NCBI GenBank assembly: GCA_963422365.1
Contig: OY729426.1
Span: 736,001 to 800,000, forward strand
DNA: 64,000 bases
Reading direction: 5' to 3'
From: Nitrospirales bacterium
Lineage (GTDB): Bacteria > Nitrospirota > Nitrospiria > Nitrospirales > UBA8639
Positions 3,409-37,006 of this stretch are shown piece after piece; position 1 is the stretch's first letter, and every line of letters begins with the position of its first letter. The notes under the pieces are model-generated. The model was not told the origin of the DNA, made no database searches, and worked only from the letters and a program-made list of their open reading frames with translations. Both the position numbers and the translations under genes were made by a program.

Positions 3409-5761
<2,353 letters not shown>

Positions 5762-6208: not shown

Positions 6209-6236
6209 CCGAAGTCCATCCTTCCTGTATGCTTCC

Positions 6237-7193: not shown

Positions 7194-7205
7194 CGACGGC
7201 ATCTC

Positions 7206-7691: not shown

Positions 7692-7752
7692 GTCCTGGGG
7701 GCCTGAAGCGGTGTTGCGAGATTCGCAATGGACACGGGGCGAGAAGCCCAGG

Positions 7753-9249
7753 CTAGTTGACACGGCGGGGGATTTTGGGATCAGGGAGTCCGGCTCTGGT
7801 TTTAGCCATTGGTTTTTTCAGGCCCATCCTTTGTATCCGTGTCGTCAAGGTTGTTGGGGGGATGCCAAGTAACGCTGCGGCTCCAGTTTCTCCGAAAATT
7901 TTCCAGTTCGCACTCTGTAAGGCATTGAGAATGTTTTCGCGTTCAAATTGTTTGATGTCATCAAACGTGAGAACGGTGCCAGAGGCATGAACGAATTGAT
8001 TTTGCGGCAAGACGTTTCTATTTTGGGGGCTTTGGGGTAAATCGAACACTAACCTGTTGGCCCGTGCAATAATAACGGCACGCTCAATCACATGTTGCAG
8101 TTCTCTAATATTACCAGGCCAGTCATAATGCCCAAGCGTGAGTAAATTTGCCTTGGATAAATGAATCCCCGTCCGATTGAATTTTTCTTGCGCAAGTTTA
8201 AAGAAATGACTAGCTAATGCAGGGATATCTTCTTTTCTTTCTCTTAATGGCGGTATTTCTAAAGGAAAAACATTTAAACGATAAAAAAGATCTTCCCGAA
8301 ACTTTCCACTTTCCACCTCATTTTTTAAGTGACGATTGGTTGCCCCTATCACGCGAACATCCGATTGTATCGTTTTGTCATCTCCTACACGTTCGAAAGT
8401 GCCTTCCTGAAGGACTCGCAGTAATTTACTTTGCAGGTCCAACGGAATTTCTCCGACTTCATCCAAAAAAAGCGTGCCTCCATTGGCCAATGCAAACCGT
8501 CCCCTCCGATCCTTGAAGGCGCCCGTAAATGCTCCTTTCACGTGACCAAAGAACTCACTTTCATATAATTCCCTTGGAATCGAAGCGCAGTTGACTCGAA
8601 TCAACGGTCGTGAAGCGCGAGGGCTCCGTTTGTGAATTGCATGTACGAGGAGTTCCTTGCCTGTTCCGGATTCTCCAGTAATCAGGATATTTGCGTCGGT
8701 GGGAGCAACTAATTCGATTTGTTTCAAGATATTTTGTAGTGATAAACTGTTCCCGATGATGTTGCCAAACGCGTGGAGTTCCATCACTTCTTCATGCAGA
8801 TACTCGTTCTCAAGTTCTAACTGTTCGCGTAATCGATTGATTTCTTCAAACGCGTTGGCTTGTTCCTCTTCAAATTTCTTCCGGCTGGTGATGTCTCGGA
8901 TAAACGCGACCGCGTACTCTCGCTTATCACATTCCAAATAATTGACGGTGATGTCTACAGGAATCACTGTGCCACCTCTGGAACGATGACGGGCTTCGAA
9001 TGTCAGCGTTTTAGCTTGTTTGAGTTCCGTCCAAAATGTTTGCCAAGTCTTTTTACTGGAATCAGGATTAATGTCCTGAATCGTCAGACCGATTAATTCT
9101 GTTTCCGAATAATCGAGAAGTCTGCAAGCCGCTGTATTTGCATTTAAAATCACCCCCTGACAATCGTGAAAAATGATGGCATCACCAGAATGTTCAATAG
9201 TGAATTCAGCCAGTTCTAACGTTTGGTCCTTATTGAATTTTTCCCCCAT
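7753..9249 (-). CDS. PAS-domain sigma-54-dependent transcriptional activator
   Basis: N-terminal [34 protein letters not shown]-terminal HTH; start placed at ATG 9249. Confidence 0.95.
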
Positions 9250-9310
9250 CGTGAGTCTCCCGATTTTTAAAAGCCACCACAAAGCAACTCCCGCCACAAA
9301 AACATACGAG

Positions 9311-9357
9311 TTTGAGTAGATTGTCTACTTAAAATATTAATATACCAATTTGAGTAG
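9311..9357. promoter_or_regulatory. candidate upstream activator site for the sigma-54 activator
   Basis: Inverted repeat TTTGAGTAGA-ttg-TCTACTTAAA (1 mismatch) plus half-site TTTGAGTAG at 9349, 70-115 bp upstream of the -24/-12 promoter. Confidence 0.55.
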
Positions 9358-9424
9358 TAGCTTCAATGGAAAGGGGGTCACAAAAAACATATATTCCATA
9401 AGAGGTGATGCAACGCAAACGTTA

Positions 9425-20721: not shown

Positions 20722-23700
20722 ATGAATGCGTTTGACCATCTCTTCACCAAAATTACTGGGTATGACAAGGCGTATCAGTGGCAAGTGGAACTTGCGAGTC
20801 CAACCGACTGCGGGAATCGCCTGATTTGCATTCCGACCGGCTTTGGCAAGACCCTGGGCGTTCTCGCAACCTGGGTGTGGCATCGCGTACACAACCCCAG
20901 TGACACTTGGCCGCGCCGTCTGGTCTGGTGTCTGCCCATGCGGGTGCTGGTCGAGCAGACGGAAAGCGAAGTCCGCGCGGCGCTCGACCGTCTGGGGCTG
21001 CTATGGGATGGGAAAAGCCCTCACGACGGCAAGGTTGGCGTTCACCTGCTGATGGGCGGTGCCGACGCCGGCCAATGGCACCTCTATCCGGAATGCGACG
21101 CCGTGCTGATCGGGACGCAGGACATGCTGCTTTCACGAGCCATGAACCGGGGCTATGCGAGCCCCCGGGCGCGCTGGCCCATGGAGTTCGGGCTGCTGAA
21201 CCAGGATGCCCTGTGGGTGATGGACGAGGTGCAGTTGATGGATGTGGGCCTTGCCACCTCAGGACAACTTCAGGTGTTTCGGGGCGATGACCAAGCCGCC
21301 AAGAAGTCGTTGCGGCCCTGCTTCACTTGGTGGATGAGCGCAACGTTGCAGCGCACTTGGCTGGAAAAGAGCCCGGACACGGCCGACTTGACCGCTGAGC
21401 TCGCCCGGAAGACGCACGGCATTGGCTCCAAGGATCGGGTGGGCCGCCTATGGAATGACGTGATCAAGCCTTGGGAAGCCGTTCCGTTCACCAATCCGCA
21501 GGAGCTCGCTGAGGATCTGTCCCAACGTCACCGTGATCTTGGTTGCGGAAAGAAGGGGCCGACGCTGGTTGTGCTCAATACGGTGGAGCGGGCCGTTGCA
21601 GTCTGGACGGCGCTTCGGCGGGACAGGACGCTGCGGGACGCGGATACGGACATTCGCTTGACGCACAGCCGCTTCCGCCCCGTCGAACGCCAAGCTTGGC
21701 GCGCAGAATTCCTGAACCGCGAGGCTTGCAGCCCGGGAACGAATCGCATCATCGTTTCCACCCAGGTCGTCGAGGCGGGCGTGGACATCTCGGCATCACT
21801 GCTGGTCACCGAGCTGGCACCCTGGCCAAGTTTGGTGCAGCGGTTCGGCCGGTGCGCACGGTGGGGTGGAATGGGTCGGGTCGTCGTTGCGGACTTCGGG
21901 CACGACAGCGACAAGAAAGCCGCTCCCTACTCAGAGGATGAGCTCGATGCCGCGTGTGAAGCCTGCAAGGATCTGCCGTACGTTGGGCCCATCCATCTCG
22001 AATGCTTCGAGGATGCGCATGAAGCGTTGCTGCCGCGCCTCTATCCCTATGAACCCAGGCACTTGTTGCTGCGCCACGAATTGGACGAACTGTTCGACAC
22101 TTCTCCAGATTTGTCCGGGGCGGACATCGATATCAGCCGTTTCATACGCTCTGGCGACGAACGCGACGTGCAGGTCTTTTGGGCCGATGTCGAAGACAAG
22201 TCGCATCCAGCATCGAACCTGAAGCCGAAGCGCGACGAGCTTTGCAGCGTACCCTTCCTCAAGGCTCGCGAATGGCTATGCGCATCACCGAAGTCGGAGA
22301 AGCTGAAACCCGACGCTCACGCATGGGTCTGGGACTGGCTTGACCGCAAGTGGCGCCGTGCCGGACGCCGTGACCTCCATCCGGGCCAGACGGTGCTGGT
22401 TGACAGCGGAGTGGGGGGCTACGACCGTGCTCGAGGCTGGGACCCGAATTCCAAGGCTCCGGTCGAGCCAGTGAGCCTCGTGGACGAGGAGCCCACTGGT
22501 CACCGCCCTTGCTGGAAACGCGACGGCGACGGCTGGCTTCCGAGCGAGCGTCGCATTCGCAAGCTTCCGCCCGAGGACCTCGCCGATGACGCTGAAGAAG
22601 ATGAATCGCTGAGTGTGTCCGGTTGGCAGACCATCGCCAGCCACGGCCTGCAGGTGGGCGAGGAGGTCGAATGCATTGCCAAGGGGGTTGCGCCATCGGA
22701 AGCTCGGCTGCTGCACTTGGCCGGACGCTGGCACGATCTCGGCAAGGCGCATCCGGCTTTTCAAGGCTCCATTCAGGCCCACGACCGCCCTGAACGAGAC
22801 GACATCGCCAAAGCGCCGGACCGCGCTTGGCCGTGCAGCCCGAACAACATGTACCGCATCGATGTTACGGACCAACGGCGCGGATTTCGCCACGAACTGG
22901 CGAGCGCACTCGGCCTGTTCGGCGTTCTGCAACGACATGATTCGCAGCATCCGGCGCTGCTCGGCCCGTGGCGCGAGTGGTTCGACGCCATGGGAGATGC
23001 CCATACGACGGAAGATTCCACTTGCGGCGCGGTCACTGCCAAGCCCACGGCCATCGAACAGGAGATACTCGATCTCGCCGCCGCCGAGTTCGACTTGCTC
23101 GCCTATCTGGTTTGCGCCCACCACGGCAAGGTGCGGATGGCTTGGCACGCAAGCCCCGCCGACCAGAAGGCGGATGATCGCCGGCTGCGCATACGAGGCG
23201 TTCGGGAGGACGACATATTGCCGCCGCTGCCATTGGCCGACGCCGCCGGCAAGTTCCAGGAACTGCCCGCGACGGCGCTGGACCTGTCTCCTTCCGAAGC
23301 GGGTTTGAGCGTTCGAACCGGCAGGAGCTGGACCGAGCGCGTGCTGAATCTCGTCGAGCGCTTCGGACCGTTCACGTTGGCCTGGCTGGAAGCTCTGCTG
23401 CGCGCCGCCGATCAGCGCGCCTCGATGAAAGTGATTACGGATACGCTGTTACAGGAACAGGAGAACAACGATGCCGGACAATCATTGGGTAAAAGCCATC
23501 GAACACTGGCGCCTCCTGCCGGAGGAGGAGCGTCAACGACGCCACCAGGAGTCGATCCCCCGTCACGTCGCCAACTCCATGGCGATGGAGGGCGAGCCGG
23601 TGGACGAAGCGTGGATTCGGGAACGACTCGCCCTCCGCATTCGGCCACCCGCTACGTCGAAACCGCCCTCGGCATCCTGAGCTATCAGGAACTCGCCCCG

Positions 23701-24219
23701 CTGCTCGCGGAGCGAGTAGCCGATGCCGAATTCGCCATTTCGGGCCGGAAATTTGCGCATCAGCCCATTCACGACCTTCTGCTTGATCTTCACCGGCACA
23801 TCTGCGCCGACTTGATACCGGACATGGCGGGGCGTTGGCGACTTCGAGACGTTCGCGTCGGCGAACATCAAGCGCCGTCGCATTGGCAGGTTCCCATACT
23901 GATGCGCAACTATGCCGCCGACCTCGATGTGCGACTAGCGAACCTGGACGAGGATCCCGGCGAACGGCTCATCGATGACCTCGCCTTTGCCGAAGGCCGT
24001 CTCCTGCACATCCACCCGTTCGAGGATTTCAACGGGCGGGTTTCCCGCCTGTTCCTCGTCGAACTGCTCTACCGGTTGAATCTGCCGGTGATCGATCCCG
24101 CCGCGTCGTCGGAGGAGGAGACCAAGCGCTACTTTTCTGCCTTGCAGGCGTATGACCGATGCGACCCGCGCCCTCTTACTGCAATCTGGTGCCTCCGTTT
24201 CACACAGGGAAGCTCCTGA
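20722..24219 (+). CDS. cas3: type I-G Cas3 (helicase followed by HD nuclease) fused to a C-terminal Fic domain
   Basis: PTGFGKT; DEVQ; SAT; STQVVEAGVD; QRFGRCAR; HD motif WHDLGK; HHG; LLRAADQRAS; then Fic motif HPFEDFNGRVSR at 24013-24048. Confidence 0.95.
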   Translation: MNAFDHLFTKITGYDKAYQWQVELASPTDCGNRLICIPTGFGKTLGVLATWVWHRVHNPSDTWPRRLVWCLPMRVLVEQTESEVRAALDRLGLLWDGKSPHDGKVGVHLLMGGADAGQWHLYPECDAVLIGTQDMLLSRAMNRGYASPRARWPMEFGLLNQDALWVMDEVQLMDVGLATSGQLQVFRGDDQAAKKSLRPCFTWWMSATLQRTWLEKSPDTADLTAELARKTHGIGSKDRVGRLWNDVIKPWEAVPFTNPQELAEDLSQRHRDLGCGKKGPTLVVLNTVERAVAVWTALRRDRTLRDADTDIRLTHSRFRPVERQAWRAEFLNREACSPGTNRIIVSTQVVEAGVDISASLLVTELAPWPSLVQRFGRCARWGGMGRVVVADFGHDSDKKAAPYSEDELDAACEACKDLPYVGPIHLECFEDAHEALLPRLYPYEPRHLLLRHELDELFDTSPDLSGADIDISRFIRSGDERDVQVFWADVEDKSHPASNLKPKRDELCSVPFLKAREWLCASPKSEKLKPDAHAWVWDWLDRKWRRAGRRDLHPGQTVLVDSGVGGYDRARGWDPNSKAPVEPVSLVDEEPTGHRPCWKRDGDGWLPSERRIRKLPPEDLADDAEEDESLSVSGWQTIASHGLQVGEEVECIAKGVAPSEARLLHLAGRWHDLGKAHPAFQGSIQAHDRPERDDIAKAPDRAWPCSPNNMYRIDVTDQRRGFRHELASALGLFGVLQRHDSQHPALLGPWREWFDAMGDAHTTEDSTCGAVTAKPTAIEQEILDLAAAEFDLLAYLVCAHHGKVRMAWHASPADQKADDRRLRIRGVREDDILPPLPLADAAGKFQELPATALDLSPSEAGLSVRTGRSWTERVLNLVERFGPFTLAWLEALLRAADQRASMKVITDTLLQEQENNDAGQSLGKSHRTLAPPAGGGASTTPPGVDPPSRRQLHGDGGRAGGRSVDSGTTRPPHSATRYVETALGILSYQELAPLLAERVADAEFAISGRKFAHQPIHDLLLDLHRHICADLIPDMAGRWRLRDVRVGEHQAPSHWQVPILMRNYAADLDVRLANLDEDPGERLIDDLAFAEGRLLHIHPFEDFNGRVSRLFLVELLYRLNLPVIDPAASSEEETKRYFSALQAYDRCDPRPLTAIWCLRFTQGSS
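23471..23680 (+). CDS. putative Fic antitoxin (FicA/VbhA-like), overprinted in an alternate frame of cas3-fic
   Basis: AGGAG RBS just upstream of ATG; 69 aa; VANSMAMEG fits the (S/T)xxxE(G/N) inhibitory motif; sits just before the Fic domain. Confidence 0.75.
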   Translation: MPDNHWVKAIEHWRLLPEEERQRRHQESIPRHVANSMAMEGEPVDEAWIRERLALRIRPPATSKPPSAS

Positions 24220-26498
24220 TGATCCACGTCCATACACTCGACGGCTGCGCACCCGCGCCGCTGGCGCATTACCTCAAGGCGCTCGGCATCCTGCGGTTAG
24301 TCGCCGAGCAGGCCGACAGCGATGTGCGCGGGTGGTGGGCGGGAGATCGTTTTCGGCTGGCGACGAAGCTGGGCAGGGAGGAGCTGGAGGGGTTCTTTTT
24401 GAAGGACTACCAGCCCACGCCGCTCGTGTCTCCGTGGAACAAGGGTGCAGGTTTCTTCTTCGAGAACGACCCGGGAGTATCTCCCCTGGAGAAATCGACA
24501 AGCCCTCGATTCGCAGCCTTCCGTTCGGGCATCAAGGCAAGCCGATCACAACTTGAAAAACTGTCAGAGGTGGACCAGAAGGTCCGCGACATCAAAGCGG
24601 AAACCAAAATTAGGGGAATGAGCAAAGCGGAAAGAACCCGGATGCGGAGCTCTGAGGAATACAAGCAACGACTTCGAGAAGCAGAGAAGAGGTTCAAGCA
24701 GATCAAGGCGGATCTGATCCCCAGTTTCCGCTTGAATTGGCGGGGAACTCATCGAGAGTGGATGGATTCCGCGATGGTGTTGGGAGACGACGGAACTCCG
24801 AAATATCCTGCGCTGCTTGGCACCGGGGGCAACGACGGTCGACTCGATTTTACCAACAACTTCATGAAACGGCTTGGAGAAGTGTTCGATCTCGGCAGCG
24901 ATGACGGTGCGCCGCGGTCTGCAGCAACGTCTTGGGTGTCCGGGGCCCTTGGGGGCTCGCCGGTTCCGGGCAATCTGGCAGGACAACCTGTCGGTCAGTA
25001 CCTGCCAGGTACGGCCGGGGGCGCGAACAATGGGAATGGCCCCGATTCAGACAGTATGGTGAATCCGGTGGATTTCATCCTGATGCTCGAAGGCGCCATC
25101 GTATTTGCGTCGCACGTCTCCCGACGTTTCGGCTCGTTGGAATCCTCCCGCGCCGCTTCGCCGTTCGCGGTCAACGCCTGCGGAGCAGCATACGCGAGCG
25201 CGTCGACGGATGATGAGAGCGCGAGGGGCGAACAATGGATGCCGCTATGGTCGCGGCCGTCAACTTACGGGGAACTGCGCCGTCTTCTGGCCGAGGGCCG
25301 CGCTCAGATCGGCACTCGAAGCGCAAGAGAACCGCTGGATCTTGCTCGAGCGGTCAAACGTCTGGGCACCGCACGCGGTATTCGAAAATTCCAACGTTAC
25401 GGCTACATTGAGCGCAACGGGCAATCCAATCTGGCGGTTCCCCTGGGTCGTTTCGACGTGGCGGAACGTCAATCCGAACATCTAGTCTGCATGGAAGATC
25501 TCCATCTCTGGTTGCGGCGTCTGCGTCAAGAGGCGCGCGGCCAGAACGCACCAGCTCGCTTATTCATTGCGGAAAAAAGTCTTGCGGATGCGCTCTTTGC
25601 TGTCACTGAACACTCCGGCACCCCGGAATGCTGGCAACGCATTCTTGCGCAGTTGGCGGAAATCGAAGGAATCATGGCCCACGGCAGCGGCTTCAACGCC
25701 CAGACCATTCCGCGTCTGTGCCCGGAATGGGTGTCCGCGAGCGATGACGGAACGCCGGAATTCCGCTTGGCTCTCGCCTTTGCATTGCAGGCGCAAGATT
25801 TCCACCGGTTATGGAAGACGCCAATCGATCCGATTCGGCGTCACTGGCTTCCCCTTGACCGAAAGCAGCCATCGCGCTTTGCCACGACCGGCACAGGCGC
25901 CACAACAAGGCTCGATTTGCAGCCGGAAGTGGTCATGCACGGCCGCCGGGGGCTTGACGACGCCATCGCCCTGGTCGAGCGGCGTCTGGTGGAGGCTTCC
26001 CAGCGCGCAGGCCGCCATCTGCCGCTTAAGGCAGCGCCGTGTGCGGCCGCTGGCATAGCCGACCTTGCGGCGTTGCTCTATGGCCATGTGGATCTGGATC
26101 GCACCCTGGCTCTGGCGCGCGCCCTCATGGCGCTGGATCGCAAGGCATGGGTTGAGCGCCACATACCCATCGAGTTCCCTCGCGCTTCGGATTGGTCGGA
26201 CGATGCCTGGCTGGCGATCCGTCTGTGTACGCTGCCTTGGCCGCTCAAGACGCGCTCCGGGTTCAAGCTCGACATCGGAACCAACCGGGCCATCGTCCGC
26301 CGTCTTGCCGTCGGCGACGCTGCCTCCGCCGTCACCATTGCGTTACGCCGTCTGGGTGCGGCCGGCGTCCGCTGCACCGTCCGTGCCGGTGCAGCGTCTC
26401 CCGAGACTTCTCGGTTGTGGGCCGCAGCCCTGGCTTTCCCCATCACCCAAGGAACCGCTAGGCGGTTTCTCTATTGCTTAGATCCGAATAAGGAGTAA
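24219..26498 (+). CDS. csx17: type I-G Cascade large subunit (Csx17/Cas8g)
   Basis: PLAHYLKALGILRL; PTPLVSPWN; LLGTGGNDGRLDFTNNF; RGEQWMPLW; RNGQS; TGATG coupling to cas3. Confidence 0.92.
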   Translation: MIHVHTLDGCAPAPLAHYLKALGILRLVAEQADSDVRGWWAGDRFRLATKLGREELEGFFLKDYQPTPLVSPWNKGAGFFFENDPGVSPLEKSTSPRFAAFRSGIKASRSQLEKLSEVDQKVRDIKAETKIRGMSKAERTRMRSSEEYKQRLREAEKRFKQIKADLIPSFRLNWRGTHREWMDSAMVLGDDGTPKYPALLGTGGNDGRLDFTNNFMKRLGEVFDLGSDDGAPRSAATSWVSGALGGSPVPGNLAGQPVGQYLPGTAGGANNGNGPDSDSMVNPVDFILMLEGAIVFASHVSRRFGSLESSRAASPFAVNACGAAYASASTDDESARGEQWMPLWSRPSTYGELRRLLAEGRAQIGTRSAREPLDLARAVKRLGTARGIRKFQRYGYIERNGQSNLAVPLGRFDVAERQSEHLVCMEDLHLWLRRLRQEARGQNAPARLFIAEKSLADALFAVTEHSGTPECWQRILAQLAEIEGIMAHGSGFNAQTIPRLCPEWVSASDDGTPEFRLALAFALQAQDFHRLWKTPIDPIRRHWLPLDRKQPSRFATTGTGATTRLDLQPEVVMHGRRGLDDAIALVERRLVEASQRAGRHLPLKAAPCAAAGIADLAALLYGHVDLDRTLALARALMALDRKAWVERHIPIEFPRASDWSDDAWLAIRLCTLPWPLKTRSGFKLDIGTNRAIVRRLAVGDAASAVTIALRRLGAAGVRCTVRAGAASPETSRLWAAALAFPITQGTARRFLYCLDPNKE

Positions 26499-26503
26499 TA
26501 ACT

Positions 26504-27535
26504 ATGACTATTGACTTGAAGCCACTGGAAAACGCCAATCGTTTGCTGTTCAGGATTCCCTTGGAGCCGTTGCAGGGAGGCCGATTTCAACCCACCGGAT
26601 TCCCCTCCCTGGGTGCTGCAGAGTTTCAGACTGTCAACGGCAAAAGCCTTTTGGTGGAGTCAGCGCAGAGCATGGCCAACCGCTTGGAGATGACCGTTTG
26701 GGATACTGCTAAGAACAATGTTAAGGAGGATCTGAACGGGCTGTCGCATGTGCGCGTAACCCGAAATGGCGCGTTTCTGACCGATACGATCTTGGATTCG
26801 CATCGGTTAAACAGTCCCTACCTGCTCGAAGGCAAGAAGGATAGGACGTTCCTCAATACGCTCAAGGATGAACTCGGAGTATTGGAGACTGGCCCAATTG
26901 ATCGTCAAAAGCTTGCCGAGGTGCTGTTGAAATACGACGTCAACTCGCTGATACACGGGGTGTTTCTGGCGAAAAAGGAGTTGGCGGGTGGCCGCCTGCG
27001 CATCGCCCGCGCTTTGTCGGCTTTCATCGAAGCGGACAATGTCCAGGTCGCGGCCTCTGGCGGCGTGAAGAATGACCACGTCAATCCATCGGGCGACGCC
27101 AAGGCAGGTTTCGGCAACGTTCCATTCGCACGGGACGAATACACCGCTGAGTCGATCACCCTATACGTCAATCTGGACTTGGTGCAGATCCGGGGCTATG
27201 GGCTGGGAGATGCAGTAGAACGCCTTCTGATTCTGTTGTCGCTATACAAGCTGCGCGCCCTGACCGGCGCAGGGATGCGCTTACGCACGGCCTGCGACCT
27301 GAAGGTCGTAGACAAAGATATCCAGGCGACGATGTCGGAGAGATGGGCGCTTCCCGGACTCGAAGACTTGGCAAGCGAAGTAACGTCCGCTATAGCCAAA
27401 TGCAAAGACTCCGATGGCAAAGACCGAATGAAGGTGACCCCCGTAACATTCGAAGACGAACTCAAGAAGGGTAAGGCGGAAGGCCAGGCAGGGCTGGACG
27501 ACGACGCCAACGACCACGAGGATGCCAGCGAGTAG
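26504..27535 (+). CDS. csb1: type I-G Cas7 (Csb1)
   Basis: FQPTGFP; LVESAQSMANRLE; HRLNSPY; SLIHGVF; GFGNVP; LRTACDL. Confidence 0.93.
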   Translation: MTIDLKPLENANRLLFRIPLEPLQGGRFQPTGFPSLGAAEFQTVNGKSLLVESAQSMANRLEMTVWDTAKNNVKEDLNGLSHVRVTRNGAFLTDTILDSHRLNSPYLLEGKKDRTFLNTLKDELGVLETGPIDRQKLAEVLLKYDVNSLIHGVFLAKKELAGGRLRIARALSAFIEADNVQVAASGGVKNDHVNPSGDAKAGFGNVPFARDEYTAESITLYVNLDLVQIRGYGLGDAVERLLILLSLYKLRALTGAGMRLRTACDLKVVDKDIQATMSERWALPGLEDLASEVTSAIAKCKDSDGKDRMKVTPVTFEDELKKGKAEGQAGLDDDANDHEDASE

Positions 27536-27539
27536 AGCC

Positions 27540-29234
27540 ATGCCGCTATCTGTCGCTTTTGGGTTCCTCGCGGGACGCTACCACGCCACGCCGTTCGGGC
27601 ACCACGTCAACGAGGGGTTGATCGAGTGGCCGCCTTCGCCCTGGCGGCTGCTGCGGGCGCTGATTTCCGCCGGCTACACGGCCGGTGCCTGGGACGGTGC
27701 CGGTCCGCCGGATGTTGCTCGCAGCCTCATCGAAAAACTGTCCGCCGAGCTGCCACGCTATCGCCTGCCGCCTGCGGTCGGCACCCACAGCCGCCATTAC
27801 ATGCCCATCGGCGTATTGGACAGCAAAACGAAGATCGAAAAGACGACCCTGGTGTTCGACACCTGGGCGCGCATTGAAGACGAAGAATTGACGGTCACCT
27901 GGAACGATGCCCGTCTGGACGAGGTCGAGCGCTCCCTCCTCGGCGTTCTGGTGGCGCGCCTGAGCTACCTGGGGCGCTCGGAAAGCTGGGTGTCAGGCCG
28001 GGTAATGGGAGAGCACGAACCGACGCCAGACGCCAACTGCTTTCCCGAACGCCAGGGAGAGACGCCCGGCCACGGCTGGGAGCAGGTGCCTCTGCTTGCG
28101 GCCATAAGCGCCGCCGACTTCGCGGCTTGGCGCACAAAGCAACTTGACCATGCCCTCGCCAAACACCCCTTGCCAGACGGGAGGAACCCGTCCGAAACGC
28201 TCCTCAACAAAAGTAAAAAAGCCGCAGCGCCCTACCCCGACGACCTGCTGGATTGCCTGCAAAGGGACACGAACTGGCTGCGCTCCCACGGATGGAGCCA
28301 GCCGCCCGGCAGTCGGCGCGTCTTCTACTGGCGGATGTCCAATGCCGTCGCAGTGGGCGCGCCGAAGACGACAAGAAGAGCAACTCCATCCGCGCCACGG
28401 GTCGAGGCCATGCTCCTGTCCCTCACCAACGCCAGCCGTAACGACCATGCGCTGCCGCCGGTGACCCGAACCTTGCCGCAAGCGGAGTTGCTGCATCGTG
28501 CGCTTGTCGGCATCGCTACTCGGCACGGTGCGCCACCGCCTGAACTCACCGGACGCGACGAGAACCGCCAACCGCTTCAAGGACCGCATGAACACGCGCA
28601 CATCAATCCTCTCGATCTGGACGGCGACGGGCACCTGGACCACATCCTGATTTGGGCGCCCGTGGGCCTCGGCGCCGAGGCCCAAGCCGCCATCCGCGCC
28701 GCACGAAGAACGTTTACGAAGGGCGGCATTGAACCGTTGCGTCTCGCTTTGGCGGCGACGGGGGAACTGAGCGATCTGGTCCGATTGCCAAGGAGGTACG
28801 GGCAGCGGGTTGCCCGCATCACGGATTGTGCGTCAATCTGGCAATCGGCGACGCCCTTTGTTCCGCCTAGATACATCAAGGTGCGCGGCAAGAACACGCT
28901 CGAAGGGCAGATACGAGCCGAACTGTCTTCGCGGGGATTTCCCGAACCGATCGCGGTGCATCAGCTCGCGTCCATGCCTCGGAATCGAAACGATACCGTG
29001 CCGACGAATGGAGCTGCCGATGAAAGAGGCAAGGCGACTTGGAGTCGGCTCCGCCATTTCAAACTTGTGCGCCGACGCGGGCCAGAGCCGCCGGCAGCTT
29101 GCGGATTCGCCATTCGGCTGGAATTCGAGCCTCCGATCTCCGGCCCCATCGCGCTTGGCTATGGGTCGCATTTCGGCCTGGGGTTGTTCGAGCGGATACC
29201 CTCCGAGGCGGTCATTGACTATGGCGACGAGTAA
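27540..29234 (+). CDS. csb2: type I-G Cas5/Cas6 fusion (Csb2)
   Basis: GRYHATP; EWPPSPWRLLRAL; YLGRSES; WQSATP; GPIALGYGSHFGLGLF. Confidence 0.95.
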   Translation: MPLSVAFGFLAGRYHATPFGHHVNEGLIEWPPSPWRLLRALISAGYTAGAWDGAGPPDVARSLIEKLSAELPRYRLPPAVGTHSRHYMPIGVLDSKTKIEKTTLVFDTWARIEDEELTVTWNDARLDEVERSLLGVLVARLSYLGRSESWVSGRVMGEHEPTPDANCFPERQGETPGHGWEQVPLLAAISAADFAAWRTKQLDHALAKHPLPDGRNPSETLLNKSKKAAAPYPDDLLDCLQRDTNWLRSHGWSQPPGSRRVFYWRMSNAVAVGAPKTTRRATPSAPRVEAMLLSLTNASRNDHALPPVTRTLPQAELLHRALVGIATRHGAPPPELTGRDENRQPLQGPHEHAHINPLDLDGDGHLDHILIWAPVGLGAEAQAAIRAARRTFTKGGIEPLRLALAATGELSDLVRLPRRYGQRVARITDCASIWQSATPFVPPRYIKVRGKNTLEGQIRAELSSRGFPEPIAVHQLASMPRNRNDTVPTNGAADERGKATWSRLRHFKLVRRRGPEPPAACGFAIRLEFEPPISGPIALGYGSHFGLGLFERIPSEAVIDYGDE

Positions 29235-29529
29235 GAAGCTGTGCGACGCCGCGTCCATACTGCGCATGATTCGAGATGCCCTTGGCAAGCAGATCAGCGG
29301 CAGGACGTTCGAGGAAGAGCGACCCTCCGTGCGGCGGCGTCTCCATGAGCCTGCGGTATCGCCGGTACCGGCAATGATGATTCCACAAAAACCGGCTCGC
29401 CGCGGATGGCAGAGACGAGTCGTGACGTATGCTGCCGAAAGGATCCGCACGATTCCGTGCAAGCGAAGATCCGGCGTTTCAGGACAGCGCGGCGAGTCGC
29501 ACGTGGAACCCAACGGAAGCGGCCTTTAA
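29221..29529 (+). CDS. small hypothetical protein overlapping the end of csb2 (possibly degenerate)
   Basis: ATG at 29221; MATSKKLCDAASILRMIRDALGKQISGRTFEEER. Confidence 0.35.
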   Translation: MATSKKLCDAASILRMIRDALGKQISGRTFEEERPSVRRRLHEPAVSPVPAMMIPQKPARRGWQRRVVTYAAERIRTIPCKRRSGVSGQRGESHVEPNGSGL

Positions 29530-29627
29530 CCATCGGAAGAGGGAATGCGATACGTCAATCGGCAAAACCGGTTGATCGTTGATGGCGCACGTGGGGAGCA
29601 ATATTCGAGTGCCCTGCCCATTCCACC

Positions 29628-31220
29628 TCAGGGTACAGCGGGAACGGCCCGGCGGAGTTTCTGCATCACTTTAAAAAAGCCATGCCGACCGGTGACGGCA
29701 GCTGCGGCTGAGACCCCGCCCATGAGCGCACCGACAATGCCCACTGCGCAGACGTCCGACCCACTGAGGTATAACCCGGGCACCGGTGTTTGAGGTGTGA
29801 GCCAATCCAGCCCGTAGCGCGCCGGCACGGCCGGCAGGCCGTACATCATGCCGTGCTCTCTGCTGGTAAAGTTCCGGATCGTCAGCGGTGTCGACAACTC
29901 CTGGAAGGCAATCAACTCGCTAAACCCGGGATAATGGCTCTCGACCAGTTTCACCATGCCGTCGGCAATGGTCCGTTTCAATCCGTCATACGCCTTGCCC
30001 CGATTCCTCCAGGGTTTGTCCTGCCATTGCGTAAAATGAGCATACTCCGTAAAACAGATGATCTCGGCCGTGGCGCTCTTTGCATCCGAGTTTTTCAGGG
30101 AGGGAAAGGAGAGATAACAGGCCCGGCAGCGCCCTTCCAGCAGCGCGTTGGTGTCATGGAGCAACCCATCGTGATCGTACCCTGTAAAAATCCAGTGATT
30201 TTCTCCGTTGAAACCCAAGGCGCGCGGGTCATCCTTGAATCCGATATACAGGGTCACGGCGCTGCATGCGCACCTGAAACGATGCAACTCATCCAGGAAG
30301 GGGATGGGAATGGATGCCGGCAGGAGTTTGTTATATGTCAGGTCTGCGCCCACGTTGGAAATCACGATGGGGGCGGAAAACGTGAGCGACTCCCGTCTTG
30401 CGCCCTTGATTGTTTCCACGGCCACGCCTACCGCCCGATTATCATGAACAAGAATCCTGACGGCCTCATGGTTGACCAAACACCGCCCGCCTCGGGCTTC
30501 AATCACGGGCAGAATGGAACGCGCCACGCGCGTGCTGCCGCCCTTTGGAAACCAGGCCCCGTTCAGGAAATGATGGACAATCAACGCATGGATCGCGAAC
30601 GCGCTGTCGGCAGGTGGTAGGCCGTAATCGCCCCACTGCGAGGCGAGTACCGCCTTCAATTGCGGATCATTAAAATACTTGTCCAGAATCGTTCTGGTTG
30701 TCGAGAGGGCCAGCTTTTTGCCTGGCAGGTTGCTCAATCGGATAAACGGTTGCACCCAGGCCGGCATAACGGGCCTCAGGAACTGTCTCTGCGACCATGC
30801 CGCCGCACGGTGAATGGCCTTGAAATAGGCGCGAATGGGCGCGTTCTCGTCGGGAAATTGCTTGACCAGGGCTGCCGTATAGGCCGCTTCATCGTCCGCC
30901 ACCTCAAAGGTAAAATCAGGATACACGAAACGCTCAAACACCGTGGGCAGTTTCTCCCAGTCCAGCCGGCCGTCGGAGATAAAGTCGAACACCTGCCTTG
31001 GCAGGTCACCGCGTTGCATCTCGCCGACATAATGCAGCCCGACGTCAAAATGATAATCGCCCCGCCGGAATTCATGAGTGAGCCCGCCTGGGATCCAGTG
31101 CTTCTCGAGGATCAGCACCTTTTTATGGTTTATCTTTGCCAGCAACGCGGCACTGGTCAGACCGCCGATGCCGGATCCGATGACGATAACGTCGTACGTA
31201 TGCTCAGCCTGCAGCGCCAT
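29628..31220 (-). CDS. phytoene desaturase/retinol saturase-like FAD-dependent oxidoreductase
   Basis: YDVIVIGSGIGGL; FDVGLHY; STPLT; TPVPGLYLSGSD. Confidence 0.9.
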   Translation of the reverse strand: MALQAEHTYDVIVIGSGIGGLTSAALLAKINHKKVLILEKHWIPGGLTHEFRRGDYHFDVGLHYVGEMQRGDLPRQVFDFISDGRLDWEKLPTVFERFVYPDFTFEVADDEAAYTAALVKQFPDENAPIRAYFKAIHRAAAWSQRQFLRPVMPAWVQPFIRLSNLPGKKLALSTTRTILDKYFNDPQLKAVLASQWGDYGLPPADSAFAIHALIVHHFLNGAWFPKGGSTRVARSILPVIEARGGRCLVNHEAVRILVHDNRAVGVAVETIKGARRESLTFSAPIVISNVGADLTYNKLLPASIPIPFLDELHRFRCACSAVTLYIGFKDDPRALGFNGENHWIFTGYDHDGLLHDTNALLEGRCRACYLSFPSLKNSDAKSATAEIICFTEYAHFTQWQDKPWRNRGKAYDGLKRTIADGMVKLVESHYPGFSELIAFQELSTPLTIRNFTSREHGMMYGLPAVPARYGLDWLTPQTPVPGLYLSGSDVCAVGIVGALMGGVSAAAAVTGRHGFFKVMQKLRRAVPAVP

Positions 31221-31221
31221 A

Positions 31222-31695
31222 TCAGACCGGTTGATCAACCATCCAATAGACTGAGAGAAGGGGGAAGATCGCCGCGCTCGTGCCGAAGCCGTTCCAGATG
31301 CGGGTCAAACGCCGGTATTGCGCCGGGATCACCCCGCCAGCGCTAAAGGCCCGTGCCAACCTGGTTTGTTTGATCTGCACCGGCACCAATCTGCTGACCC
31401 AGATAATCCCGGACGAGATAATCAGTATCCGGCCATTCGCTAGCCAGGCCAGGCCCGGCGCATTGTCCATCAAGGCATGCACCATACTCCCCTGTAGCAA
31501 CCAGCAGGGCGCGACCCCCAGGGCGGTAAAGACAGAATCCGTCAGGGTCACCTGACGTTGGGCAAACGCGACGATTGTCGCATCACGGGTTTGGTCGGCT
31601 ATGATCTTCCACCGCGTCGTAACGATCATGTTGCCGAGAAACAGCATGACACCGAGCATAGGCAGGCTCTTGAATCATACATCGTGATCGGCCAT
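31222..31695 (-). pseudogene. DUF2269-like membrane protein with in-frame TGA at 31675-31677
   Basis: MADHDV*FKSLPMLGVMLFLGNMIVT...LVPVQIKQ...WNGFG pattern. Confidence 0.65.
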
Positions 31696-31697
31696 GG

Positions 31698-32162
31698 TCA
31701 GCGAGTCCTCAGATTGACGTTCACAGTCTTGGCGGGGACGCTGAACGCAAACCGCGCCTCTTCATAGCTGGCCGGACCGAAGAAAGCCTGGGGGTTGTTC
31801 GAAAAACCATAGCCTTCCTTCGGGATACCGGTAAAATTTTTGTCCAGTTTGCCGTTGTTATTTTCATCGTGGTAGAGCTTGATGGCGTATTCCCCATAGG
31901 GCAGCCGTTCGAATACATACTCGGCCTGCCCGTCATGCACCTCGGCAGTCACGGACTGATAGGCCTGTTTACTATCTTCGTCCCCCCGCCCGTGGTCTGC
32001 GTCGTAGGTTTCTCGGGAAGTGAACAGGCCTATCATCAGGACGCCCCGGTCCGGGGCAAACCCCTCCACGGATAATGTCAAATCGCCATGCAAGGGTTCG
32101 GCCGCAGCCGAAAACAGACAACCGAGCGACAGCCACGCAGAAAAGAATAGTTTAGACGTCAT
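31698..32162 (-). CDS. DUF2141 family secreted protein
   Basis: Signal peptide; GEYAIKLYHDENNNGKLDKNFTGIPKEGYGFSNN. Confidence 0.9.
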   Translation of the reverse strand: MTSKLFFSAWLSLGCLFSAAAEPLHGDLTLSVEGFAPDRGVLMIGLFTSRETYDADHGRGDEDSKQAYQSVTAEVHDGQAEYVFERLPYGEYAIKLYHDENNNGKLDKNFTGIPKEGYGFSNNPQAFFGPASYEEARFAFSVPAKTVNVNLRTR

Positions 32163-32213
32163 GGAATGTTCCTCCCTCTTCTTCAGCAGCGTACGGTATA
32201 TGATTATATATGC

Positions 32214-32233
32214 ATATACAAATAGTTGCATAT
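32214..32233. promoter_or_regulatory. AphA/PadR-type operator
   Basis: ATATACA-N6-TGCATAT, one mismatch from the AphA box ATATGCA-N6-TGCATAT; lies between divergent genes. Confidence 0.7.
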
Positions 32234-32360
32234 AGGATAAAAAAGTATAGGATCACGTTTCGGATTAGTCAAGACCGACTACATCTGTTGTATTGACGGA
32301 CCGGACCATGCCGTTGCTACAGAACAAGGCAAAGCCATTCAACAAGACAGGAGATCCATC

Positions 32361-32912
32361 ATGTCGTTACGTCACGCCTTACTCGTATCATTGAGCAGAA
32401 AACAGGGTACGGGTTACGAAATCGCCAACGAATTCGACCGAGGGCTGGGTTATTTCTGGCCGGCCAGCCACCAGCAAATCTATCAGGAACTCGGCAAAAT
32501 GGCAGTTGAGAGGCTGGTGGCGTTCACGCGGCGACAACAACCGGATAAACCACCGAAGAAAATTTATCGCGTAACCGGAAATGGACGAAAATCCCTGATT
32601 GCATGGCTGGCAACACCGGTCGATATGCCAGCGGTCAAAGACCCCCTGTTGATTAAATTGTTTGCCGGAGACTTGATACCAGCGCAAACGCTGCTTGATG
32701 AAATCGACCGTCATAACGCGATCAACGCGGAAATACTTTCACGCTACCGTTCAATAGAGAAACAATATTTTGACAATCCCGATGCATTGCCCGCCACCAG
32801 TCAGTTCATATATATGACCCTGTTACGGGGGATTACCGCGAGAAAAGCGTGGCGTGCCTGGGCTCTGCGAGTCAGGCGTTTTTTGGAAAATCAGGCGCAC
32901 AACGCATCGTGA
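32361..32912 (+). CDS. PadR-family (AphA-like) transcriptional regulator
   Basis: MSLRHALL...TGYEI..EF...GYFWPASHQQIYQEL. Confidence 0.93.
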   Translation: MSLRHALLVSLSRKQGTGYEIANEFDRGLGYFWPASHQQIYQELGKMAVERLVAFTRRQQPDKPPKKIYRVTGNGRKSLIAWLATPVDMPAVKDPLLIKLFAGDLIPAQTLLDEIDRHNAINAEILSRYRSIEKQYFDNPDALPATSQFIYMTLLRGITARKAWRAWALRVRRFLENQAHNAS

Positions 32913-32945
32913 CAATAGAGAACGAATAGCCCCAAGATTCACCGT

Positions 32946-34658
32946 ATGACCCACGAACGGCAACTCTCTCTTCCCTTGCCACCGCCGCCGGCCGACGCGG
33001 ATGTGCCGCTCATTCCGGCGCGCATGGTCAATGAATGGGTGTATTGTCCGCGGCTTGCCTATCTGGAGTGGGTGGAGGGCGAATGGGCGGAGAGCGGCGA
33101 TACCGCCGAGGGGAGGCGCGTGCATGCCCGGGTTGATGAGGGCGGGGGCCATCTGCCCGAGCCCGAGGATCTCGACGAAGAAATGGCTCGGGCTCGAGCG
33201 GTCACCATGTCTTCGGAACGCCTGGGCATGATCGCAAAGATGGACGTGGTGGAGGCGGACGGGGGAATAGTCATGCCCGTGGATTTCAAGAAGGGCAAGC
33301 GGCCGCACGTCGCCGCGGGCGCCTACGAGCCTGAGCGGGTCCAGGTCTGCACCCAGGCCATGATTCTCGAAGACAACGGGTACACAGTCGAGCGGGGCGC
33401 GTTGTGGTACGCCGGGTCGCGTGAGAAGGTGCCGGTCGTCTTAGACGATGAACTCCGTGCCCTGACGCTGGAAGCCATCTTTGGCCTTCGTTCGGCCGCT
33501 GTCTCAAGGCACCGGCCGCCGCCGCTCGAAAACAGCCCCAAGTGTCCGCGTTGCTCACTGGCCGGCATCTGCCTGCCGGATGAGACCAACCTCTTCCGAA
33601 AGGGATATCCCCCACGGCCGCTCAACCCGGCCGACGATCCGGCGCTTCCGCTCTACGTGCAGACCCCGGGCGCACGACTGCGCAAGAGCGGCGAACAATT
33701 GATCGTCGAGATCGAAGAAGAGAAGGTGGCAATGCCCATGATTGACGTGTCCCAGGTGGCTCTCTTCGGTCCGGTCTCGGTGACCACACCGGCTCTGCAT
33801 GAACTGATGCGTGCCGAAATTCCGGTATCATGGTTCTCTACCGGTGGCTGGTTCCTCGGCCATACGATTGGAACCGGCAACGGCAACGTGGCCGTGCGCG
33901 AGGCACAATACCGGGTGGCCTTTGATGAACGTCGTTGCCTCGCGTTCTCGCGTGATCTCGTTGCGGCGAAAGTACGAAACTCACGCACGCTGTTGCGCCG
34001 CAACTGGCGCACGGACAGGGGTCTCGGTGCCAGAGAAGAGACTCTGACCAGACTGAATCGCATCGCCCAACAAGCACCCCACGTCAAGGACATTCCACAG
34101 CTCTTAGGCATTGAGGGTGAGGCCGCAGCCGTCTACTTCGCTTGCTTCGAGAACATGCTCGCAACGGACGCAAAAGAAAGCCTGGCCGCGTTTTCCTTCT
34201 CGACGCGCAACCGACGTCCGCCCACGGACCCCGTGAACGCGATGTTGTCGTTGGCGTATGCCCTGCTGACGCGCACCTTCGCGACGACGATCTCGGCGAC
34301 CGGGTTGGACCCCTACATGGGCCTCTACCATCGTCCGCGCCAGGGGCGTCCGGCGCTGGCCCTCGACGTGATGGAGCCGTTCCGACCCATTGTTGCCGAT
34401 TCCTGTGTGATCCAGGCCGTCAACAACGGCGAGGTCAAGCCGGGTGATTTCGTGTTCAACGGGCCAGCGTGTGCGCTGAAACCCGGAGGTCGTAAGGCGT
34501 TCATGGCCGCGTTCGAGCGCCGCATGGAACAGGAGACCACCCATCCGCTTTTCGGCTATCGCGTCTCCATGCGCCGGTTGATCGACGTTCAGGCGCGGCT
34601 GCTCGCCCGATATTTGCAAGGCGAACTCTCCACCTATCCGCATTATCTCCCCCGGTAA
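32946..34658 (+). CDS. cas1: Cas4-Cas1 fusion
   Basis: Cas4 part VYCPR, DFKKG, CPRCSLAGIC; Cas1 part LLGIEGEAA, RRPPTDPVNAMLS, ALALDVMEPFR. Confidence 0.96.
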   Translation: MTHERQLSLPLPPPPADADVPLIPARMVNEWVYCPRLAYLEWVEGEWAESGDTAEGRRVHARVDEGGGHLPEPEDLDEEMARARAVTMSSERLGMIAKMDVVEADGGIVMPVDFKKGKRPHVAAGAYEPERVQVCTQAMILEDNGYTVERGALWYAGSREKVPVVLDDELRALTLEAIFGLRSAAVSRHRPPPLENSPKCPRCSLAGICLPDETNLFRKGYPPRPLNPADDPALPLYVQTPGARLRKSGEQLIVEIEEEKVAMPMIDVSQVALFGPVSVTTPALHELMRAEIPVSWFSTGGWFLGHTIGTGNGNVAVREAQYRVAFDERRCLAFSRDLVAAKVRNSRTLLRRNWRTDRGLGAREETLTRLNRIAQQAPHVKDIPQLLGIEGEAAAVYFACFENMLATDAKESLAAFSFSTRNRRPPTDPVNAMLSLAYALLTRTFATTISATGLDPYMGLYHRPRQGRPALALDVMEPFRPIVADSCVIQAVNNGEVKPGDFVFNGPACALKPGGRKAFMAAFERRMEQETTHPLFGYRVSMRRLIDVQARLLARYLQGELSTYPHYLPR

Positions 34659-35166: not shown

Positions 35167-37006
35167 AATTCCGAGGCATATTTGCCTCGGCCTCATTGAA
35201 GCGCCGCCCGCGTCCGTCCGGCGTTGGCGCTCGGGGAAAATTCCGAGGCATATTTGCCTCGGCCTCATTGAAGCAAATTCTTTTTGATCGCGGACAAGGT
35301 TTTGCAATTAATTCCGAGGCATATTTGCCTCGGCCTCATTGAAGCCTACGCCGCCGATTCCGGTGTGGTGCAGATCGAGAGAATTCCGAGGCATATTTGC
35401 CTCGGCCTCATTGAAGCTTGTCACTGTGGCGCTTGCGATTAATCTCATCTTGCAATTCCGAGGCATATTTGCCTCGGCCTCATTGAAGCCCCGCCTCGTG
35501 TGGGGACGGACACCACCGGGAAGAGGGAATTCCGAGGCATATTTGCCTCGGCCTCATTGAAGCGGCCGTCCACTGCGCCGCGACACTGACGATATTACTG
35601 AATTCCGAGGCATATTTGCCTCGGCCTCATTGAAGCCTCTCGAGAGTCCGCAAGCCCTGCGGCCATGCGCTAATTCCGAGGCATATTTGCCTCGGCCTCA
35701 TTGAAGCCTCGGATCATTGCTACCGCCGGCCGAGTGAGGGATCAAATTCCGAGGCATATTTGCCTCGGCCTCATTGAAGCGACGGTCGCCGAGGCGGTAT
35801 ATTGGCGCCCGGGCTGCCAATTCCGAGGCATATTTGCCTCGGCCTCATTGAAGCCTTTTTATTTTTCCCTTCTTCCCTCTTCCTTTTTAAATTCCGAGGC
35901 ATATTTGCCTCGGCCTCATTGAAGCTATTTCCACTCGCACCGCGAGTGGGGTGGGCGTGAGAATTCCGAGGCATATTTGCCTCGGCCTCATTGAAGCTTA
36001 GAATCTGATTCTAAAAACTGAATCCTCATCTCGAATTCCGAGGCATATTTGCCTCGGCCTCATTGAAGCTTTAGTCAGGGTGAGGGGCTCTCGCGCGAGC
36101 ACCAGAATTCCGAGGCATATTTGCCTCGGCCTCATTGAAGCTTTTTTGCCTTCGATTTTCATTCTTGGCGGTGTGCTAAATTCCGAGGCATATTTGCCTC
36201 GGCCTCATTGAAGCGCTCCTTGTGTCCGCCTCTCTATTTTTTTTGCCGTGAATTCCGAGGCATATTTGCCTCGGCCTCATTGAAGCCGTATACTGCGGCG
36301 CCGGCGCCGCAGCAGGCCTGGCAATTCCGAGGCATATTTGCCTCGGCCTCATTGAAGCCTTCTCCCCTTCTTCCTTCTTAATTCTTCCTTCTTAAATTCC
36401 GAGGCATATTTGCCTCGGCCTCATTGAAGCTCGAGTGCCCCCACTAATTCCTTCAAAGACTCGGATTAATTCCGAGGCATATTTGCCTCGGCCTCATTGA
36501 AGCCTTGCATGACTGATAGTAGGGGTTCCTTCAGGAACAATTCCGAGGCATATTTGCCTCGGCCTCATTGAAGCCCAGAGGGGGTATCCCTAGATGGGTA
36601 CACCCCTTCGAATTCCGAGGCATATTTGCCTCGGCCTCATTGAAGCTTGTTGCCCAAATTTGGAAAATAGAAAGGGGAAAAAATTCCGAGGCATATTTGC
36701 CTCGGCCTCATTGAAGCTTTGCTAATATTGTCAATTTGCATTCGAGCGCTATTAATTCCGAGGCATATTTGCCTCGGCCTCATTGAAGCTTGGACTCCTG
36801 CCCGCTTTCTCGACGACAATTGGATGAATTCCGAGGCATATTTGCCTCGGCCTCATTGAAGCAAAACAGACTCAGAGATAGAAGATTCTGGATTCTTACA
36901 TTCCGAGGCATATTTGCCTCGGCCTCATTGAAGCATGACGGCTGACGATCGTAATCCTCATGTCTGCACTCATTCCGAGGCATATTTGCCTCGGCCTCAT
37001 TGAAGC
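35167..37006 (+). CRISPR. CRISPR array with 26 repeats and 25 spacers (35-38 nt)
   Basis: 36-nt repeat AATTCCGAGGCATATTTGCCTCGGCCTCATTGAAGC with hairpin CCGAGGCA/TGCCTCGG and type I-G-style ATTGAAGC end; last two repeats begin with C. Confidence 0.99.

Follow-up and report, generated by a model that had tools for sequence, protein, structure and literature searches.

A conserved small gene nested in another frame of a type I-G cas3-fic gene most likely encodes an inhibitor of the Fic domain

Results

We analysed a window of 64,000 nucleotides (nt) from a Nitrospirales bacterium (GenBank assembly GCA_963422365.1, contig OY729426.1, positions 736,001 to 800,000 of the forward strand). It carries a complete CRISPR-Cas locus of type I-G, with cas3g-fic as the first gene. 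This gene is one uninterrupted open reading frame (ORF) of 1165 amino acids (aa) on the + strand (20722..24219), which fuses the Cas3g helicase-nuclease to a Fic domain. Inside it, on the same strand and in the +1 frame relative to cas3-fic, lies a small ORF of 69 aa (23471..23680), the subject of this work, which we predict to encode a Fic inhibitor or antitoxin.

The small ORF runs from an ATG at 23471 to a stop codon at 23678-23680. A Shine-Dalgarno-like AGGAG (23459..23463, + strand) stands 7 nt 5' of the ATG, and the candidate inhibitory motif SMAMEG (Ser36...Glu40) is encoded at 23576..23593 on the same strand. An earlier note on this DNA had pointed to this arrangement, a 69-aa ORF wholly within cas3-fic with its AGGAG and SMAMEG, and each of the coordinates it gave proved correct. 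A TGA at 23432-23434 closes the small-ORF frame 36 nt 5' of the ATG, so the ORF cannot be the continuation of any upstream gene. Contigs from three independent sequencing runs cover 23452-23664 with zero indels, which rules out an assembly error as the source of the frame arrangement. A contig of a run that we guessed to be RNA matches 23393-23530 and then continues into an unlike, A-rich sequence; we give it no interpretation.

For the host protein, all parts are on the + strand. The Cas3g part occupies residues 1-901 (20722..23424) and ends in AADQRAS; the NCBIfam Cas3g model TIGR02621 matches residues 4-901 (E 1.9e-222), and both the NCBIfam and the PADLOC Cas3g models stop at residue 901-903. 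The linker that follows in the Cas3 frame, residues 902-963 (23425..23610), is variable and of low complexity. From residue 902 to about 975 the amino acids G, P, T, S, A and R abound, and AlphaFold2 modelled residues 918-977 without secondary structure and with a predicted local distance difference test score (pLDDT) below 50. The Fic domain comprises residues 964-1165 (23611..24219), with PF02661 (Pfam) at residues 1018-1116 and the Fic signature HPFEDFNGRVSR at residues 1098-1109 (24013..24048). Its first codon, GTG 23611, is the position at which free-standing Fic homologues of about 200 aa (198-205 aa) have their start codon. The tail of the small ORF and the Fic N-terminus overlap at 23611..23680. 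The suggestion that the ORF coincides with a low-complexity Cas3 stretch is therefore right for the linker and wrong for the last ~70 nt, which overlap the conserved Fic N-terminus.

By itself, a 69-aa ORF in an alternate frame does not stand out in this DNA, as the ORF list of the window holds dozens of alternate-frame ORFs of at least 50 aa within cas3; conservation is what lifts the small ORF above chance. With E <= 0.01 as the threshold, a protein search brought up 124 homologues, mostly of exactly 69 aa and with 59-94% identity, and in a library of 1.84 billion proteins 293 cluster representatives matched the small-ORF profile (E <= 0.001). When one genome per species was scanned, 51 loci turned up, in Gammaproteobacteria, Alphaproteobacteria, Vicinamibacterales, Rhodothermales, Latescibacterota, Nitrospirales and others. 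As a close fused set we took the window and 20 loci (n=21) whose Cas3g is 64-76% identical to the one in the window and ends at the same place; this set spans Gammaproteobacteria, Alphaproteobacteria, Vicinamibacterales, Rhodothermales and Nitrospirales. The small ORF is intact in 21/21, with shared start and stop positions (ATG in 20, GTG in one). GGAG is found at -11 in 18/21 and in several distant loci, despite varying neighbouring bases, and some Shine-Dalgarno-like word lies 5' of the start in 20/21. Thus, length, start, Shine-Dalgarno word and sequence are conserved across phyla, and the ORF, its start codon and its Ser...Glu motif are kept in homologous loci, as the antitoxin proposal required.

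At the level of selection, we compared the frames by the ratio of non-synonymous to synonymous changes (pN/pS), taken from pooled pairwise substitution counts across the 21 close fused sequences. In the overlap core, the ratio was 0.26 for the small-ORF frame, 1.49 for the Cas3 frame and 1.50 for the third frame, while the Cas3 C-terminal part gave 0.47 and the Fic body 0.45. The most variable codon position along the gene is the Cas3/Fic third position, except in the overlap core, where it is the third position of the small ORF. The alternate frame is therefore the constrained one, as had been proposed. In the final 66 nt of the small ORF, the Fic frame gave 0.41 and the small-ORF frame 0.76; this apparent return of constraint to the Fic frame fits the tail of the small protein, which is variable in sequence and length and modelled with low confidence. 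Judged by these substitution patterns, the small ORF is a genuine protein-coding gene under strong purifying selection.

The Cas3 frame across the overlap was followed in 132 copies of the small ORF, located in the window and 130 loci (two of the copies at contig edges). Over codons 1-47, a stop in the Cas3 frame was found in 0/42 copies preceded by Cas3 and in 36/88 other copies. The Fisher p of 4e-8 for this contrast is too strong, because common ancestry, and near-duplication in a few cases, means that the copies are not independent. When we resampled the small ORF synonymously with each locus's own codon usage, 0.8-3.3 stops were expected per locus and the probability of an open frame was 0.015-0.41 per locus. 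These counts indicate that selection keeps the Cas3 frame open and leaves its sequence free, which is what a tether would need. Both frames are thus constrained, as expected of overprinting: the small-ORF frame in its sequence, and the Cas3 frame, free in sequence, by being open in 42/42 copies. Moreover, public catalogues contain 179 clusters of long proteins with this Fic domain (E <= 1e-10). Cas3 helicase Pfam domains were also present in 118 of the 119 long Fic proteins listed (query excluded), and their sources name the long Cas3-Fic proteins either 'Fic family protein' or 'Cas3'.

No examined member of this Fic family lacks the small ORF, which lies immediately upstream and extends over the Fic start. 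Among 79 metagenome loci that we retrieved by Fic similarity alone, the small-ORF core was present in the +1 frame and overlapping the Fic start in 79/79, three of the copies being cut by contig ends or lacking a start. At L095:2860-3570 the small ORF is in frame with Fic, and this contig looks poor or decaying because its cas3 has several frameshifts as well. In the window, the small ORF ends 70 nt into the Fic coding region and so has the upstream place of a class I antitoxin gene. The Fic part of the family has no conserved helix of its own with the motif, and its sole conserved T-x-x-x-E is in a predicted beta-hairpin.

The free-standing family of ~200-aa Fic proteins has 331 members at E <= 1e-5. 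In the signature HPFxDFNGRxxR, the H, P, F, D, F, N, G and both R are invariant in 25/25 family members. The closest solved sequence to the Fic part is FICD (E 2.5e-11), and its PADLOC matches are PDC-S04 (E 8.8e-20) and SoFic (4e-10). Together with the Cas3 tether, these two matches suggest, speculatively, a role in defence. Many of the free-standing Fic proteins among P0123-P0242 are named 'CRISPR-associated endonuclease/helicase Cas3' by one source, a label that was probably passed on from fusion proteins.

For the small protein, W13, P30, A34, S36, M37, E40, E42 and V44 are invariant in a diverse 39-member alignment. Its structure model has three helices (mean pLDDT 84.7), with S36...E40 at the C-terminal end of helix 2, so that S36-M-A-M-E40-G41 of the window is a helix-borne (S/T)xxxE(G/N). 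We co-folded the Fic domain and the small protein, each with its own alignment, alongside three controls. The pair scored 0.90 and the best control 0.00, and the mark used is passed by 116/157 solved complexes and by 2/215 mismatched pairs. Three runs agreed in at least 92% of contacts, with a partner pLDDT of at least 80. The predicted interface joins small-protein residues 28-40 to Fic G142, R143 and R146 (Fic-domain numbering), and R146:S36 and R143:S36 were among the most confident contact pairs. The co-fold that the earlier note had asked for thus came out in favour of binding, with Ser36 touching both arginines, and the model supports a plausible fit between the small protein and Fic.

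The module also occurs in other arrangements. Free-standing pairs of small ORF and Fic exist, and gene callers do find them. A stop in the Fic frame stands two or three codons before the Fic ATG in many free-standing loci, so the pair, with its short overlap, also exists as an independent two-gene module; free-standing relatives in the window's own clade retain traces of the linker. In a third arrangement, small ORF and Fic lie 5' of a separate cas3g on the same strand (L063, L064, L067, L071, L073, L076, L083, L086, L087, L094 and L097); in L086 the end of Fic at 2636 is followed by the Cas3 match from 2639. We also built a quick Fic tree, with a midpoint root, support from the Shimodaira-Hasegawa-like approximate likelihood ratio test (SH-aLRT) only and some 'free-standing' rows on short contigs. 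It has one major clade of 40 rows with zero fused members and another in which 31 fused, 16 free-standing and 5 'Fic then Cas3' rows are mixed, and its well-supported branches force at least five state changes.

Fic is joined to another conserved N-terminal domain of ~60 aa (...NLSQLRYFRSLSLREKLQAVE...), not Cas3, in L067:238-1428, L081:1337-2425, L087:1884-2924 and protein P0153. There the same small-ORF-overprinted stretch bridges the two domains, so the linker with the nested antitoxin gene is not Cas3-specific. In P0344 (304 aa), a small-ORF homologue is joined to a non-Fic, glycine-rich sequence that we take to be Cas5/Cas6-like. P0347 and P0360, one of 169 aa and one of 184 aa, look like deletion or frameshift derivatives.

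Downstream of cas3g-fic, the same type I-G operon encodes Cas8g/Csx17, Cas7g/Csb1 and Csb2 (24159..29234, + strand; TIGR04113 with E 6.4e-176, TIGR02570 and TIGR02165, NCBIfam). They are followed by Cas4g/Cas1g (32946-34658, + strand; NF049935, E 4.1e-234) and by a CRISPR array at about 35310-37006 (+ strand), with a period of 72-73 nt and a conserved unit of ~36 nt. All five type I-G Cas proteins of the window pass the curated NCBIfam cut-offs. Some 3.7 kb (29235-32945) separate csb2 from cas4g/cas1g and hold long ORFs on both strands; an NCBIfam scan of one of these long ORFs gave no match, and a weak PadR-like ORF lies at 32361-32912, in the gap before cas4g/cas1g.

The cas3-fic gene has a G+C content of 62.8% vs 54.4% for the whole window, a difference compatible with horizontal acquisition of the locus. 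The small-ORF-Fic family shows high identity over many phyla. Compared with L001:2111-5746, the window shows 95-96% identity in the small ORF, the linker and Fic, 75.5% in the Cas3 part and 63% in Cas8g; this contrast suggests a recent swap of the small-ORF-Fic segment among type I-G loci. In L023, also from Nitrospirales, a small ORF with a truncated Fic (5001-5374) is followed in tandem by an entire cas3g-fic that has a nested small ORF too (5894-9385). At L012:2439-3269 (- strand), a type III-B Cmr4 gene is the neighbour of a free-standing small-ORF-Fic module and of a type I-G Csb2, which brings two CRISPR types side by side.

Discussion

We consider it likely that the small ORF is a real nested gene whose product inhibits the Fic domain that follows it, in the manner of a class I antitoxin. 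The earlier note had read the overprinted ORF in this way, and conservation, selection, the pairing with Fic and the predicted complex all lend it support. According to the accessible text of PMC3667792, the inhibitor of class I Fic proteins is a separate antitoxin, encoded upstream, whose helix bears (S/T)xxxE(G/N), and the inhibitory Glu competes with the ATP gamma-phosphate for the second signature arginine.

As in VbhA/VbhT of Bartonella schoenbuchensis and EcFicA/EcFicT, our system has a small helical protein encoded immediately 5' of the Fic gene. It also shares with class I modules an invariant Ser and Glu four residues apart, a Fic protein without its own inhibitory helix and, in the predicted complex, the placement of the motif at the signature arginines. 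As differences, the small protein has no detectable sequence match to VbhA or FicA, an R often follows the Glu, and the Fic signature reads HPFxDFNGR. A further difference is an antitoxin gene that reaches ~70 nt past the toxin start in the clade of the window and that, in the window, lies wholly within a larger ORF that fuses Cas3g to the toxin. Assignment to the VbhA/FicA type, as first proposed, is thus favoured by the upstream place, the Ser/Glu pair and the co-fold, and not by sequence similarity or by the non-canonical Fic signature.

For the mechanism, the small protein would be translated within the cas3-fic mRNA by means of a GGAG and an ATG of its own, and its three helices would dock on Fic, either in the same Cas3-Fic molecule or in another. 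Helix 2 would rest with its end (Ser36...Glu40) on the signature loop at G142, R143 and R146, where Glu40 may stand in for the gamma-phosphate of ATP at the second arginine, in the way known from VbhA/VbhT. The Cas3-tethered Fic would then be held inactive until some trigger removes the inhibitor. For the origin, we propose that the free-standing two-gene module came first, its two genes sharing at most ~70 nt at the start of Fic. With the antitoxin gene extending across that start, a domain can be joined to the Fic N-terminus only by crossing this gene in a different frame, and this need for read-through would have given rise to the overprinted linker. The joining of a non-Cas3 domain across the same stretch fits such a geometric origin.

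Several observations weigh against an inhibitor of the class I kind. The canonical Fic signature is HxFx(D/E)GNGRxxR, and proteins that depart from this motif are regarded as having other activities, as the accessible text of PMC3667792 has it. In the family described here, the signature has F in place of the canonical first glycine (25/25) and is therefore not canonical, while the His, Asp, Asn, second Gly and both Arg are retained. The small protein gave nothing significant against Pfam, NCBIfam and PADLOC, where the best Pfam rows were sub-threshold noise (DUF4172 in 4/39 members, best E 0.065). Profile searches of PDB sequences at E <= 10 returned no VbhA/FicA, only chance rows (e.g. enoyl-CoA hydratase). 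Foldseek with the small-protein model found no match at E <= 0.001, and in a wide VIA-align comparison all Z were below 4; EcFicA (5jff_B) came at rank 12 (Z 3.5, root-mean-square deviation 5.4, 49 aligned), tied with unrelated helical proteins. Such fold searches are uninformative with a 69-aa helical protein as the query.

The motif itself counts partly on each side. The (S/T)xxxE(G/N) that had been recognised in the ORF holds for its Ser and Glu, invariant in 39/39 members, and fails for the residue after Glu40, which is G in 101, N in one, R in 22 and another in 8 of the 132 copies. With R or another residue in 30/132 and G/N in only 102/132, this last position is not a family-wide feature. 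Besides, the co-fold may pass through likeness to solved Fic-inhibitor complexes, and a look-up of sequencing runs found no RNA run on record that holds the stretch.

A further point is a set of 14 small-ORF copies without a full Fic, all within type I-G loci (L025, L028, L029, L031-L035, L037, L041, L042, L045, L004 and L026; small ORF at about 5001 in most). In L037 the small ORF stands 50 nt 5' of a Fic-less Cas3g, and in L028 and L031 it precedes Cas7g, Csb2 and Cas3g. Five genomes of this set were checked and held no close Fic (best E 3.6e-15). Purifying selection persists in these copies (core pN/pS 0.22): the L034/L041 pair differs by 16 synonymous vs 8 non-synonymous codon changes, and in pairs that seem to share one Fic loss the differences are mostly at third positions. 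These patterns suggest a role that does not need this Fic. They also fit the decay of a toxin-antitoxin pair in which the toxin goes first, yet leave room for a second role.

The same loci argue for a rival reading, in which the small ORF is real and its main job is that of a type I-G accessory or regulator that, for example, binds Cas3g or controls the operon. It would then stand before Fic through common descent, and its S...E motif would be used in some different contact. The missing sequence match to known Fic antitoxins also speaks for this reading. Against it, all of the 79 Fic-retrieved loci carry the small ORF, many without a cas gene in the fetched flanks, and the co-fold is with Fic and sets the invariant Ser on the signature arginines. 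As the Fic-less copies were found through a small-ORF search, loci that lost both genes are invisible, and loss of the toxin before the antitoxin is the expected path of decay. The deletion ends also vary from locus to locus while residues 1 to ~54 of the small ORF are always spared. On balance, we regard the accessory role as rather unlikely.

The remaining explanations concern how the DNA is read. Three separate products with no fusion of consequence, Fic being made mainly from GTG 23611 and the open Cas3 frame being tolerated read-through without a function, are favoured by the exact start of free-standing homologues at that position and by the ATG, GTG or CTG at this site in all but 1 of the 21 close fused loci, where the overlapping Trp codon fixes the last two bases. 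On the other side, with CTG in 6 and CAG in 1 of these loci an internal Fic start is not maintained. Set beside the absence of stops from the Cas3-preceded copies, where 0.8-3.3 were expected, against stops in 36/88 of the others, this makes separate products improbable.

We judge still less probable a programmed -1 frameshift that joins the small ORF to the Fic frame and yields a class II-like Fic with its own inhibitory helix. The system does resemble class II Fic proteins (FICD/HYPE, SoFic): FICD is the nearest solved Fic sequence, PADLOC returns SoFic, and the spacing from motif to Fic core is similar to that in FICD, with SMAMEG ~64 codons before the FICD-aligned residue. It differs in having the inhibitory helix on a separate polypeptide and in another frame. 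One contig, L095, shows both in one frame and has several frameshifts in cas3. On reading the 70-nt overlap we saw no slippery heptamer, and the stop position of the small ORF is conserved in the window's clade. Among the 150 matches listed from the 1.84 billion proteins, almost all were of 49-150 aa and no family with an in-frame Fic fusion appeared.

A chance open frame in G+C-rich DNA with a coincidental motif is the least credible of all. Alternate-frame ORFs of at least 50 aa are many inside cas3 and the motif is short, but the cross-phylum conservation, hundreds of homologues, the intact ORF in 21/21 fused loci and the per-frame pN/pS rule this reading out.

If the small protein is indeed a Fic inhibitor, a wider and much more tentative reading, for which we see only a small chance, is that Cas3g-Fic and the inhibitor form a CRISPR-triggered toxin switch, an abortive-infection arm of the type I-G system. 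The inhibitor made from the same mRNA would silence the tethered Fic. Recruitment of Cas3g to target-bound type I-G Cascade, or depletion of the inhibitor in infection, would free Fic, which could then modify a host or phage protein beside the degradation of DNA. Overprinting would lock the inhibitor gene to the toxin-bearing cas3, and the Fic-less copies might provide immunity against incoming Cas3-Fic modules or serve a second regulatory role in type I-G.

Fic genes near cas3 were already reported in 2013. Zhang et al. (2013, PMC3936711), in its accessible part, counts 10 Fic/DOC genes in loci that contain cas3, notes a 'slightly different' signature for 8 and argues for a coupling of immunity with dormancy or suicide. 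The antitoxin named there is a TIGR02612-type protein beside a canonical Fic in Geobacter, and that part of the article mentions no Cas3-Fic fusion or nested antitoxin. Our own literature search, with subscription journals and supplements outside its reach, found no description of either.

Overprinted genes, nested and dual-coding, are best known from viruses. The present case is like them in that one gene lies entirely in another frame of a second and one frame bears the constraint, as it is like the engineered 'entangled' toxin genes described in the accessible part of a preprint (bioRxiv 10.1101/2023.02.27.530340). Unlike them, it occurs naturally in cellular genomes and is conserved over several phyla, with a host frame that supplies only an open linker. 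The nested gene would, moreover, regulate the C-terminal domain of its own host protein.

Conclusions

What appears to be new is a class I-like Fic inhibitor of a new sequence family, predicted from the models described above, as a conserved overprint inside a CRISPR effector gene. At the level of annotation, it marks a blind spot: the small-protein family had no significant match in Pfam, NCBIfam and PADLOC, and the nested gene was missing from the catalogue examined. In an exact look-up in a catalogue of 15 billion proteins, 0/10 nested copies from fused loci were present, while the host Cas3-Fic proteins of the same records were there. The small ORFs of non-fused loci are catalogued (L004 as P0012, L005 as P0018). 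The earlier expectation that gene callers miss this ORF is therefore right for nested copies and does not extend to free-standing ones, which are called.

For the biology of overlapping genes, the locus offers a natural, phylum-spanning example in which an entire gene is overprinted on a cellular one. The roles are cleanly split, one frame encoding a folded protein and the other only an open linker, which makes it a good model for how overlapping genes originate. Finally, a Fic toxin domain is here bound covalently to the effector nuclease of type I-G, so that a link between immunity and dormancy or suicide can be tested directly in one polypeptide.

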